Assembly (NCBI RefSeq): GCF_003334255.1 | Contig: NZ_QOWU01000013.1 | Length of the DNA stretch: 64,000 nt | From: Escherichia coli | GTDB taxonomy: Bacteria; Pseudomonadota; Gammaproteobacteria; Enterobacterales; Enterobacteriaceae | Reading direction: 5' to 3' (one strand) | Shown: piece after piece, positions 11,733 through 42,862 of the stretch | How the letters are laid out: every line of letters begins with the position of its first letter | Position numbering within the stretch: position 1 is the first letter of the stretch | Program-made: the position numbers and the translations under genes | Notes under the pieces: model-generated | What the model saw: only the letters and a program-made list of their open reading frames with translations | Databases searched by the model: none | What the model was told of the DNA's origin: nothing

Positions 11733-12665
11733 TTAGTTTTCCAGTACTCGTGCGCCCGCCGTATCCAGCCGGCAAATATGAACAAAACCTTCCTGATTTT
11801 GCAGGTAGTTCTTACCCAACCAGTCGGCAACGCGCTGGGCGGTTTCCGGCTTGTCACACAGAGCGAACAAGGTCGGGCCGGAGCCGGAGATACCGCTCGC
11901 TACCGCGCCGATTTCCGCGACCGCCTGCCGCGCCTGCCGGAAGCCTGGCAGTAACCGTTCACGGTAGGGTTCAGCGATAACATCTTTCATCAGCTTCGCG
12001 GCAAGCTCAGGCTGACGGGAATAGCAGGCGTGAATGAAGCCTGCCAGATGTCGCCCGTGCGCAATGCAATCCTGGCGGCGATACTGCGCCGGTAAAATAG
12101 CCCTGGCTTCTGCCGTCGAGACTTTAATCCCCGGATACGCCAGCACCCACAGCCACTCATCAAACCCTGGCACTTGCTGGCTGATGATGTCGTTTTCTTC
12201 GATCATCAACTGCATACCACCGAGAAAACACGGTGCCACGTTGTCGTAATGAATGCTGCCGGAGATACGGCCTTCCAGCTCGCCCATCAAAGCCAGCAAA
12301 CGAGTGTCATTAAGCGGCTTGCCGCAGTGTTCATTCATCGCCATCAGCGCCGCGACCACCGAACAGGCACTGGAGCCTAAGCCCGAACCGATCGGCATAT
12401 TCTTTTCCAGGGTCATCGCCACTGGAATTTGCTTACCCAGTTCCTGGCAAAAACGCTCCCAGCACTGATAAACGATATTTTCCCGTGGTTCTGACGGCAG
12501 CTTATCGGCAAAGCGTCCGAGGTTGTTGAGACTGAATGTCTCTGCCGCCTCAACCGTGACTACATCTCCGAGCAATGCACCATCAACAGGTGTCACCGCC
12601 GCCCCGAGCACATCAAACCCGACGCTCATATTGGCACTGGAAGCCGGGGCATAAACTTTAACCAT
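11733..12665 (-). CDS. thrB: Homoserine kinase, 310 aa
   Basis: GHMP-kinase motif [10 protein letters not shown]; stop/start adjacent to thrC (cat at 11730-11732). Confidence 0.97.
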
Positions 12666-38917: not shown

Positions 38918-39003
38918 GCGGCTTTTGCCGGATGCGTCTACGCCTTATCCGGCCTACGGGTAGATACGTCTCGTAGGCCTGATAAGCGCAGCGCATCAGG
39001 CGT
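38918..39003. repeat. REP pair between deoC and deoA
   Basis: TGCCGGATGCGTCTACGCCTTATCCGGCCTAC and GTAGGCCTGATAAGCGCAGCGCATCAGGCG in inverted orientation. Confidence 0.7.
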
Positions 39004-39015
39004 AAAGCATCTTAC

Positions 39016-39795
39016 TTAGTAGCTGCTGGCGCTCTTACCGTCGCCGTGACCCAGCGCTTTCAGCAGGCTTGCCAGCAGGCTGGAAGCGCCAAAGCGGTAG
39101 TGACGCGCATCTGCCCAGTCAGCACCGAACAGTTCATCTGCAATGGCGAGATATTTCTGCGCATCTTCCGCAGTACGCACGCCGCCCGCCGGTTTGAAAC
39201 CAACGGTTTTTTCTACGCCCATATCACGGATCACTTCCATCATGATGCGCGCGCTTTCCGGCGTCGCGTTCACAGCCACTTTACCGGTAGAGGTTTTGAT
39301 GAAGTCCGCACCCGCTTTGATGGAGATTTCAGACGCTTTACGGATCAGCGCTTCGTCTTTCAGTTCGCCGGTTTCGATGATCACTTTCAGCAGTACATTC
39401 GCTGCCGCGCAAGCCTCTTTACAGGCTTTCACCAGGTCAAAACCAACCTGCTCGTTACCCGCCATCAGCGCGCGGTACGGGAACACAACGTCAACTTCAT
39501 CAGCACCGTAGGCGATTGCCGCACGGGTTTCTGCCAGCGCGATGTCGATGTCGTCGTTACCGTGTGGGAAGTTGGTTACCGTAGCGATACGGATTTCCGG
39601 GGTGCCCTGCTCTTTCAGAGTTTTGCGAGCAATCGGGATAAAGCGAGGATAGATACAGATAGCGGCGGTATTGCCGACCGGAGTTTTGGCCTGATGACAC
39701 AGGGCGATCACTTTCTCGTCGGTGTCGTCGTCATTCAGGGTGGTCAGGTCCATCAATTTCAGTGCACGCAGGCTGCTTGCTTTCAGATCAGTCAT
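39016..39795 (-). CDS. deoC: Deoxyribose-phosphate aldolase DeoC, 259 aa
   Basis: [33 protein letters not shown]...; ATG 39793-39795. The ORF-track start is 8 codons upstream. Confidence 0.95.
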
Positions 39796-39839
39796 TTCAT
39801 TCTCCTGGCTTGTCGCCAATAAAATTCACCTTGCGAGTT

Positions 39840-39941
39840 TGTTAGTATTCTAACATCTACTCCGCAACACACTTCGATACACATCACAATTAAGGAAATC
39901 TACTTACAAGTTTGCATCACTGTAATGCGATCTGGTTCAAA
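39840..39941 (-). promoter_or_regulatory. deoP2 region: DeoR operator O2 plus two CRP/CytR target sites
   Basis: O2 TGTTAGTATTCTAACA (39840-39855); CRP-like sites TGTGATGTGTATCGAAGTGTGTT (39866-39888) and TTTGAACCAGATCGCATTACAGTGA (about 39917-39941), both read on the deo strand. Confidence 0.75.
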
Positions 39942-40052
39942 TAATTCACTTTCAAATGAATGCGTCAGTGGTGGCAAACGCATCAGGATCAAAGTGAACA
40001 TCACGAAACTTCTTACAATGGCGCATCACCTTCGGCATAAAAGGAAAAGAAG

Positions 40053-41603
40053 ATGCCCACTTCTCATGAAAATGCACTGCAACAACGTTGCCAGCAAATT
40101 GTCACCAGCCCAGTGCTTAGCCCGGAGCAGAAGCGCCATTTTCTGGCACTGGAAGCAGAAAACAATCTGCCTTACCCACAGCTTCCTGCCGAAGCCCGCC
40201 GCGCGCTGGATGAAGGTGTAATCTGCGATATGTTTGAAGGTCATGCGCCGTACAAACCGCGCTATGTCTTACCCGATTACGCCCGTTTTCTGGCGAACGG
40301 TTCCGAATGGCTGGAGCTGGAAGGCGCGAAAGATCTTGATGACGCACTCTCTCTGCTGACCATTCTTTACCACCACGTACCGTCGGTCACATCGATGCCG
40401 GTCTACCTGGGGCAACTGGATGCGTTGTTGCAACCGTATGTTAGAATTCTAACACAAGACGAGATCGATGTTCGAATAAAACGTTTCTGGCGTTACCTCG
40501 ACAGAACCCTGCCAGACGCCTTTATGCACGCCAATATCGGCCCGTCTGATTCGCCCATTACCCGCGCGATCTTACGTGCAGATGCAGAGTTGAAGCAGGT
40601 TTCACCGAACCTGACCTTTATCTACGATCCTGAAATCACCCCTGATGACCTGCTGCTGGAAGTGGCGAAGAACATCTGTGAATGTAGCAAACCGCACATC
40701 GCCAACGGTCCGGTGCATGATAAAATTTTCACAAAAGGGGGCTACGGGATTGTGAGCTGTTACAACTCACTGCCGCTGGCGGGTGGTGGCAGCACGCTGG
40801 TACGCCTTAACCTGAAAGCCATTGCCGAGCGCAGCGAATCGCTGGATGACTTCTTTACGCGCACTCTACCGCACTACTGCCAGCAGCAGATCGCCATCAT
40901 CGATGCGCGGTGTGAATTCCTCTATCAACAATCACACTTCTTTGAGAATAGCTTCCTGGTGAAAGAAGGGCTGATTAACCCTGAACGTTTTGTGCCAATG
41001 TTTGGCATGTATGGGCTGGCGGAAGCGGTTAACTTGCTGTGTGAAAAAGAAGGGATTGCCGCGCGCTACGGTAAAGAAGCCGCCGCAAATGAAGTAGGTT
41101 ATCGCATCAGCGCGCAACTGGCGGAGTTTGTCGCCAATACCCCCGTGAAATATGGCTGGCAAAAACGCGCCATGTTACACGCACAGTCGGGGATCAGTTC
41201 CGATATCGGCACCACGCCGGGCGCGCGTTTGCCGTATGGCGATGAGCCAGATCCGATCACCCATCTGCAAACTGTCGCCCCGCATCATGCTTATTATTAT
41301 TCCGGCATCAGCGACATTCTGACGCTCGACGAAACCATCAAACGTAACCCGCAGGCACTGGTACAGCTTTGCCTCGGTGCCTTTAAAGCCGGAATGCGTG
41401 AATTTACCGCCAATGTCAGCGGTAACGATCTGGTTCGCGTTACCGGTTATATGGTGCGTTTGTCGGATTTAGAAAAATATCGCGCCGAAGGTTCACGCAC
41501 CAACACCACCTGGCTGGGCGAAGAAGCCGCACGCAACACTCGTATTCTGGAACGCCAGCCGCGCGTGATAAGCCATGAACAGCAGATGCGCTTTAGTCAG
41601 TAA
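40053..41603 (+). CDS. yjjI: Glycyl-radical-enzyme-like protein YjjI, 516 aa
   Basis: Full-length ORF; near the C-terminus a RVTGY motif resembling the glycyl-radical signature RV[ST]GY; followed by an overlapping activase gene. Confidence 0.85.
40439..40454. promoter_or_regulatory. DeoR operator O1 (deoP1) inside the yjjI coding sequence
   Basis: Perfect 16-bp palindrome TGTTAGAATTCTAACA, exactly 599 bp from O2. Confidence 0.7.
40718..40733. promoter_or_regulatory. Candidate distal DeoR operator OE
   Basis: TGATAAAATTTTCACA, 12/16 match to the operator palindrome, 279 bp beyond O1; tentative. Confidence 0.4.
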
Positions 41604-42438
41604 GATTATCCCCTTCTCCTGCGTTGACGGGCCAGGCAGTCGTCTGGCTCTGTTTTTGCAGGGCTGCAATCTGCGCTGCAAAAACTGTCACAATCCGTGG
41701 ACGATGGGACGTTGCAATGACTGTGGGGAGTGCGTGCCACAGTGTCCGCATCAGGCGTTGCAGATTGTTGACGGCAAAGTGGTGTGGAACGCTGTGGTTT
41801 GCGAGCAGTGTGATACCTGCCTGAAGAGGTGTCCGCAACATGCCACGCCCATGGCGCAATCCATGAGCGTGGACGAAGTGCTTAGCCATGTCCGCAAAGC
41901 AGTGCTGTTTATCGAAGGGATAACGGTGAGTGGCGGTGAAGCCACGACCCAGCTGCCGTTTGTGGTGGCGCTGTTTACTGCTATCAAAAACGATCCGCAA
42001 CTGCGCCATCTCACCTGTCTGGTGGACAGTAACGGCATGTTGAGCGAAACCGGCTGGGAAAAATTGCTCCCGGTGTGCGACGGCGCAATGCTCGATCTCA
42101 AAGCGTGGGGGAGCGAATGTCATCAACAACTCACCGGACGCGATAATCAGCAGATTAAGCGCAGCATCTATTTGCTGGCAGAGCGCGGCAAGCTGGCGGA
42201 ACTGCGTTTGCTGGTGATCCCTGGCCAGGTGGATTATTTGCAACACATCGAAGAACTGGCGGCGTTTATCAAGGGACTCGGCGATGTTCCGGTACGCCTG
42301 AACGCGTTTCATGCCCACGGCGTGTATGGCGAGGCGCAAAGCTGGGCGAGCGCCACGCCGGAAGACGTTGAGCCGTTGGCTGATGCGTTAAAGGTGCGCG
42401 GGGTGAGCCGGTTGATATTTCCGGCGCTCTATTTGTGA
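41575..42438 (+). CDS. yjjW: Glycyl-radical enzyme activating protein (radical SAM) YjjW, 287 aa
   Basis: Radical-SAM CxxxCxxC (CNLRCKNC) plus two ferredoxin-like Cys clusters ([24 protein letters not shown]); overlaps the yjjI 3' end by 29 bp. Confidence 0.85.
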
Positions 42439-42440
42439 CA

Positions 42441-42862
42441 TGCCGGATACGGCCTACGGTTCGGCACAGACTTGTAGGCCTGATAAGACGCGTCAAGCGT
42501 CGCATCAGGCATTGTGCGCCAACTGCCGGATGCGGCGCGAACGCCTTATCCGGCCTACGGTTCGGCACAAACCTGTAGGCATGATAAGACGCGACAAGCG
42601 TCGCATCAGGCATTATGCGCCGACTGCCGGATGCGGCGTGAACGCCTTATCCGGCCTACGGTTCGGCACAGACTTGTAGGCATGATAAGACGCGACAAGC
42701 GTCGCATCAGGCATTGTGCGCCAACTGCCGGATGCGGCGTGAACGCCTTATCCGGCCTACGGTTCGGCACAAACCTGTAGGCATGATAAGACGCGTTAAG
42801 CGTCGCATCAGGCATTGTGCGCCAACTGCCGGATGCGGCGTGAACGCCTTATCCGGCCTACG
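42441..42862. repeat. REP/BIME cluster: about four tandem 101-bp units
   Basis: Motif CTACGGTTCGGCACA recurs at 42455, 42556, 42657 and 42758 (period 101 bp); each unit holds two inverted REP palindromes. Confidence 0.9.

Follow-up and report, generated by a model that had tools for sequence, protein, structure and literature searches.

We analyzed the deoC-yjjI region of Escherichia coli, and in particular the operators located there for DeoR, the repressor of the deo (nucleoside breakdown) operon, within a window of 64,000 nucleotides (contig NZ_QOWU01000013.1 of assembly GCF_003334255.1; all positions refer to this stretch unless stated otherwise). By contacting two or three operators simultaneously, a DeoR oligomer forms single or double DNA loops that lock both deo promoters, and deoxyribose-5-phosphate releases DeoR. 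The 3.5 kb surrounding the operators shows 100% identity to E. coli K-12 MG1655 and is found in 5,424 of 5,426 complete E. coli genomes; a window position x converts to the K-12 chromosome as NC_000913.3 position = 4,657,118 - x. In the K-12 annotation the minus strand of the window carries deoC-deoA-deoB-deoD, and the plus strand carries yjjI followed by yjjW. The coding sequence (CDS) of deoC, the first gene of deoCABD, is located at 39016–39795 on the minus strand (ATG at 39795; 100% by tblastn). The divergent yjjI (40053–41603, plus strand; PF11230) encodes a 516-residue, NrdD-like glycyl radical enzyme (GRE) of unknown substrate and is activated by FNR (PMC3688515, PMC2634741). As the intergenic region between deoC and yjjI is only 257 bp, the promoter deoP1 and two of the three operators, O1 and OE, fall inside yjjI. 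The host gene is a genuine, expressed CDS, with a full-length open reading frame (ORF) conserved across 80 species.

The three operators are assigned to the minus strand. O2 (TGTTAGTATTCTAACA, 39840–39855; TGTTAGAATACTAACA in the deo sense) is positioned 44 nt upstream of the deoC ATG and has a single mismatch to the palindrome. O1 (40439–40454) is the perfect palindrome TGTTAGAATTCTAACA, 599 bp from O2 when measured start to start, and OE (TGATAAAATTTTCACA, 40718–40733), a 12/16 match, follows 279 bp from O1. In yjjI, O1 extends from the third base of codon 129 through codon 134 (TAT GTT AGA ATT CTA ACA, encoding Y V R I L T), and OE from the third base of codon 222 through codon 227 (CAT GAT AAA ATT TTC ACA, encoding H D K I F T). 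A first-pass annotation, made from the sequence alone, had reported a perfect 16-bp palindrome about 130 codons into yjjI, a one-mismatch copy beside deoC and a third, weaker match; the palindrome is base-exact, and the coordinates, sequences and spacings of the other two are equally exact. When up to three mismatches to the palindrome are allowed, O1 and O2 are the sole matches in the 64 kb, vs 0.21 expected, and a perfect 16-mer would be expected approximately 1.5e-5 times per 64 kb. Allowing up to four mismatches yields four matches in the window (O1, O2, OE and an unrelated one at 12665), vs 2.15 expected from shuffled sequences.

A 2017 paper citing the original work gives the DeoR palindromes as TGTTAGAA-TACTAACA and TGTTAGAA-TTCTAACA (PMC5326754). 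The latter matches the site at 40439 exactly, and the former (TGTTAGAATACTAACA) is the reverse complement of the site at 39840. The separation of deoP1 and deoP2 is 599 bp (PMC3334521), and the described layout has O1 and O2 at tandem promoters separated by approximately 600 bp, OE approximately 300 bp further upstream, and loops between all sites (PMC8053113). DeoR binds these operators, loops between them and is released by deoxyribose-5-phosphate (PMC8053113, PMC5326754). The DeoR looping architecture with three operators proposed in the first-pass annotation thus agrees with published values in both sequences and spacings (PMC5326754, PMC3334521, PMC8053113), and its statement that the deoP1 operator is embedded in a protein-coding gene holds for O1 as well as OE, both of which are well inside the conserved yjjI frame. 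We consider it very probable that the three sites are the known operators O1, O2 and OE of E. coli deoCABD, an already described system. Organism, sequences, the 599 and 279 bp spacings and the placement relative to deoC are the same, and the elements themselves are no different here. The looping of deoCABD by DeoR through these operators was reportedly described by Dandanell & Hammer in 1985, Valentin-Hansen et al. in 1986, Dandanell et al. in 1987 and Amouyal et al. in 1989, and the 279 bp between O1 and OE is presumably the distance of the published OE. The original work is older than the annotation of yjjI; the overlap is a direct consequence of modern annotation and represents no new kind of element or system. 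A literature search found no paper on the location of P1, O1 and OE inside yjjI or on their conservation as a second code.

Conservation of the operators was followed in 80 yjjI loci taken from species-representative genomes, and the clade counts cover 77 loci. Synonymous-codon diversity was calculated per column of the codon alignment, normalized per amino acid and evaluated in 6-codon windows against 5,000 column permutations. An O1-like site is present at yjjI offset +386 in all loci with deoC as the divergent neighbor; these have YjjI proteins that are 73–99% identical and include Escherichia, Citrobacter, Salmonella, Enterobacter, Kosakonia and Kluyvera, with Hafnia and Edwardsiella at the far end of the range. 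O1 is perfect in 55/77 loci, with at most two mismatches in the remainder, and occupies the same codons in all 77. The first-pass annotation had raised poor conservation in Escherichia yjjI as evidence that would speak against it; this objection does not hold, as the palindrome of O1 is intact in E. albertii and E. whittamii and also in two further lineages of the genus. OE is identical to that of K-12 in 65/77 loci, and the O1-OE distance is 279 bp in every one of the 77, since the yjjI reading frame fixes it at 93 codons. Exact 30-mers were recovered from 4494 and 5160 of 5426 E. coli genomes, counts that are uninformative for the 16-mers, megablast dropping matches with a single-nucleotide polymorphism in the flank.

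The lowest synonymous diversity of the whole gene is found in the O1 window (-2.56), followed by the OE window (-2.06). The minimum window of the permutations has a mean of -1.24 and a 1% quantile of -1.76, which corresponds to family-wise p-values of < 0.0002 for O1 and 0.0006 for OE. Majority frequencies at third codon positions rise from 0.40 at 40436 to 1.00, 0.97, 0.99, 1.00, 1.00 and 1.00 across O1, and from 0.53 at 40715 to 1.00, 1.00, 0.87, 0.99, 1.00 and 1.00 across OE, before falling to 0.47 at 40739; the edges of the conservation islands coincide exactly with the 16-bp operators. At codon 131 the amino acid varies (R, K, I or G), yet the flanking operator bases are kept, so that conservation is stronger for the DNA signal than for the protein. 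Dual constraint on the DNA of O1 and OE, as YjjI residues 129–134 and 222–227 and as DeoR sites, is well supported by these alignments from Escherichia to Hafnia and Edwardsiella, and selection has fixed the synonymous sites as well as the residues encoded there.

An O2 site with no more than five mismatches is found upstream of deoC in all deoC-adjacent loci, and the spacing between O1 and O2, which crosses the intergenic region, varies from 567 to 626 bp (mostly 596–604). The spacings of loci L002-L077 fall into groups of 567–568, 589–592, 596–604, 612 and 626 bp, separated by steps of roughly whole helical turns; the main group (596–604) alone spans almost one helical turn. Cooperation between DeoR sites is reportedly tolerant of distance. 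O2 is less conserved than O1, although O1 is intragenic.

In the deo sense, O1 and O2 both read TGnTAGAAT, which has the form of an extended -10 element (TG-T-TAGAAT); in O1 the TAGAAT is located at 40451–40446 and the TG at 40454–40453. O2 is thus predicted to overlap the extended -10 of deoP2, and O1 that of deoP1. The start of P2 would be near 39840, the last base of O2, and that of P1 near 40439, because its -10 is inside O1 and the offset to P2 is 599 bp. Two CRP-like matches on the minus strand, CRP site 1 (39873–39888) and CRP site 2 (39926–39941; 8/10), are centered 40.5 bp and approximately 93.5 bp upstream of the P2 start inferred at around 39840, and we take -40.5 and -93.5 to be the positions of the tandem CRP sites of deoP2. 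Site 1 corresponds to the motif TGTGATGTATATCGAA found in the yjjI/deoC intergenic region by chromatin immunoprecipitation sequencing (ChIP-seq) of CRP in enterotoxigenic E. coli (ETEC) (PMC4287617), and site 2 agrees with the published tandem CRP/CytR architecture (PMC3454398).

From this geometry, the predicted deoP1 leader transcript (39796–40439, minus strand) would be antisense to yjjI from codon 129 back to codon 1 and to the yjjI promoter region, and would then reach deoC. No known RNA family (Rfam) was found in 39000–42500 at E ≤ 1. Of two minus-strand ORFs in the P1 leader (72 and 76 amino acids), the 72-aa one, the sole ORF checked, was discarded as a gene, being broken by stops in other species and even in E. 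albertii. Just upstream of O1 in the deo sense, a conserved block occupies 40473–40492 (minus strand; yjjI codons 141–147, R I K R F W R) and is treated as a candidate for a -35/UP-like portion of deoP1. No other 16-nt window of yjjI is as conserved (0.99), and third positions in the block reach 0.86–1.0. The assignment of this block to P1 is kept tentative, because the KRFW protein motif that it encodes is also conserved and its synonymous excess is not significant alone. On the plus strand, the sequence of OE, TGATAAAAT, forms a TG-extended -10, and TCGCCA precedes it by 16 bp (40699–40733); this is the sole promoter-like match of a consensus scan within 39700–40900, and it may represent a cryptic internal promoter in the yjjI sense under DeoR control.

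The yjjI orthologs without the operators provide a comparison for both the DNA and the protein. Four Proteus loci, Providencia and several other Enterobacterales (65–72% identical) have yjjI elsewhere than beside deoC and carry no operator-like site. In these, the O1 segment reads YVG-x-L-T with free codon choice (GTG/GTC/GTT, GGT/GGC/GGG, CTC/TTG/CTT), and the OE segment reads QDAVFG, HSAAFD, QKKSFD or HQQAFD. In one locus (L088), deoB-deoA-deoC is divergent from yjjI and the intergenic region has an O2-like site and two strong tandem CRP palindromes, yet yjjI is without O1 or OE despite the deoC adjacency; in another (L089), deoD-deoB is directly divergent from yjjI and there are no operators. 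Adjacency to deo genes is therefore separable from the internal sites. On this comparison P1, O1 and OE characterize a single clade, having been gained once the adjacency existed or else lost in the L088 lineage.

An alignment of 25 homologs without operators places the O1 segment at the 84th and the OE segment at the 94.5th percentile of column variability, and both adjoin indel-prone stretches. In the AlphaFold model of YjjI (pLDDT 91.9), residues 130–134 form a loop between two helices, and residues 222–227 form the last part of a short helix that leads into a loop. The operators are thus probably tolerated through their position in variable segments of the protein. The rare codons AGA131, CTA133, ACA134, CGA141 and ATA142 cluster at O1 and at the block upstream of it in the deo sense; CGA141 is the only CGA codon of yjjI and ATA142 one of its two ATA codons. 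The operators dictate rare codons, and this coding cost is visible in the codon usage.

Could constraints of yjjI itself, for example on protein sequence, mRNA structure or codon usage, preserve the 16-mers, their resemblance to operators being incidental? The flanking LLxPYV, KPHIAN, YGIVSC and KRFW are conserved protein motifs, and some of the nearby nucleotide conservation is indeed driven by the protein. At the sites themselves, however, the excess concerns synonymous positions and stops precisely where the operators do, rare codons are used, the residues encoded there vary among all orthologs without operators, and the residue at codon 131 changes while the operator bases around it stay. 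As the sequences moreover equal experimentally defined operators (PMC5326754), we consider this explanation extremely improbable. For OE a separate question is whether it is a chance 12/16 match, with O1 and O2 alone functional. About two such matches are expected per 64 kb, and one unrelated match is present at 12665. OE, however, is 279 bp from O1, where the literature places it approximately 300 bp upstream (PMC8053113), is identical across most of the clade (65/77) and forms the second strongest synonymous island of yjjI (p = 0.0006); the protein segment around it otherwise ranks as one of the most variable. Position and cross-species conservation, not the sequence match, validate OE and make a chance origin very unlikely.

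Several considerations weigh against the identification of the sites as the DeoR operators of deoP1 and deoP2. By its bare sequence match OE is at chance level. The loci belong to related species and the counts are not independent; the permutation compares columns within the same alignment. For P1 there is no clear -35 hexamer, a consensus promoter scan called neither P1 nor P2, and the supplements on transcription start sites (TSS) of Kim 2012 list neither deoC nor yjjI nor the expected coordinates. The agreement with the primary work of the 1980s comes by way of later papers quoting that work. Binding and looping by DeoR are taken from the literature, and the start of P1 is deduced from sequence and geometry.

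The identification as DeoR operators leads to the question of whether the deo control region also acts on yjjI. Activation of yjjI by FNR is documented by ChIP and expression data (PMC3688515, PMC2634741), with a ChIP peak at 4,615,181 in older K-12 coordinates and the yjjI start listed as 'TSS not known' (PMC3688515). After conversion (offset 1,977) this peak falls at approximately 39960 in the window, which places it 93 bp before the yjjI ATG, within the loop between O2 and O1. According to the literature, yjjI is anaerobically induced in Yersinia too. The yjjI promoter and deoP1 face each other at a distance of approximately 400–500 bp; transcription of yjjI would have to pass O1 and OE, and transcription from P1 would have to cross the yjjI promoter. 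Both roadblocking and transcriptional interference at yjjI are plausible from this arrangement.

The overlap could accordingly be regulatory for yjjI, as a hidden member of the DeoR regulon whose FNR-dependent promoter and first third of the CDS are enclosed by the loop. DeoR at O1 and OE would act as a roadblock under repression, and induced deoP1 would fire head-on into the yjjI promoter. The geometry of operators and promoters fits such regulation, as does the FNR peak between O2 and O1, and the divergent layout of deoC and yjjI is conserved over many genera. The predicted fold of YjjI, a confident GRE fold, is closest to class III anaerobic ribonucleotide reductases (TM 0.66–0.74, 14–16% identity), and in several Enterobacterales (L082, L087, L088, L089) yjjI-yjjW is found beside a NupC-type nucleoside transporter, a 5'-nucleotidase or deoB-deoD, which hints at a nucleoside-related role. 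Against this, no expression data tie yjjI to DeoR and no open-access paper mentions both; the open-access papers that mention yjjI with deoC do so for other reasons. The L088 locus indicates that adjacency to deoC can exist without the internal sites, distant YjjI homologs retain only the yjjW activase as a neighbor, with no nucleoside genes nearby, and yjjI is still measurably FNR-activated in wild-type cells. A regulatory role of the overlap for yjjI is, on balance, a doubtful possibility. That yjjI is an unrecognized target of deo control in the full sense, with DeoR loops trapping its promoter and blocking elongation at O1 and OE and deoP1 colliding head-on, we regard as unlikely. If true, it would tie yjjI expression to the availability of deoxyribonucleosides and would hint at a nucleoside- or nucleotide-related substrate of YjjI. 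The link between YjjI and nucleoside genes is not a general one, being confined to some Enterobacterales and absent in distant homologs, and it gives a weak hint of a nucleoside-related substrate.

ChIP-seq of CRP in ETEC H10407 also gave a peak inside yjjI, 544 bp from the CRP peak in the yjjI/deoC intergenic region (PMC4287617). Measured from the pair of CRP sites 1 and 2, 544 bp lands on O1 (approximately 40424–40451). The CRP motif chosen by MEME in yjjI (CGTACCGTCGGTCACA, 40377–40392) shows no synonymous conservation and is probably not a selected site. O1 and OE each match the CRP core TGTGAn6TCACA at 8/10 positions. The signal in yjjI could be due to loop-mediated crosslinking or to weak CRP binding at O1.

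Further observations concern the rest of yjjI and its neighborhood. Codons 296–301 (FFENSF, 40938–40955) form the third strongest synonymous island, which is borderline (family-wise p of approximately 0.1); the codons of this block are mostly preferred ones, consistent with the island, and no motif was recognized in it. The start of yjjW overlaps the last 29 nt of yjjI (41575–41603), with a separate island of nucleotide conservation at 41576–41591. In the Proteus loci L078-L081 and in L085, smp is followed by yjjI-yjjW, with serB-radA-nadR on the other side. The same neighborhood presumably flanks the deo operon in E. coli, and the deoCABD block appears to have been inserted or deleted between smp and yjjI. 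Klebsiella, Raoultella and Cronobacter are absent among the yjjI orthologs down to 65% identity and may lack the gene. A 574-aa database protein (P0004) with YjjI (PF11230) and DeoC (PF01791) domains, encoded on a 2.9-kb contig, is most likely an assembly or gene-calling artifact across the divergent pair.

Other looping systems also place operators in coding sequence. In lac, the auxiliary operator O2 is inside lacZ and O3 at the end of lacI, and in gal, OI is inside galE. As in deo, these auxiliary operators are within genes, at distances of up to hundreds of bp from the main operator. The genes that contain the internal operators of lac and gal belong to the same regulatory unit and have no promoter embedded in them, whereas in deo a full promoter, P1, and two operators are contained in an unrelated gene of opposite orientation; the deo transcript from P1 would therefore be antisense to yjjI. 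The pR and pL promoters of coliphage 186 are face to face, as are deoP1 and the yjjI promoter. Transcriptional interference is known for the phage pair, to which the deoP1/yjjI pair is comparable in geometry.

The analysis re-identifies a textbook system of long-range repression, and at the same time a natural and very clean case in which an entire promoter and two operators are written into the reading frame of another gene. Over many genera, the operators freeze residues in otherwise variable segments of YjjI. Deletion or recoding of yjjI, or its allele in a knockout collection, removes deoP1, O1 and OE, and the expression of yjjI may in turn depend on DeoR.

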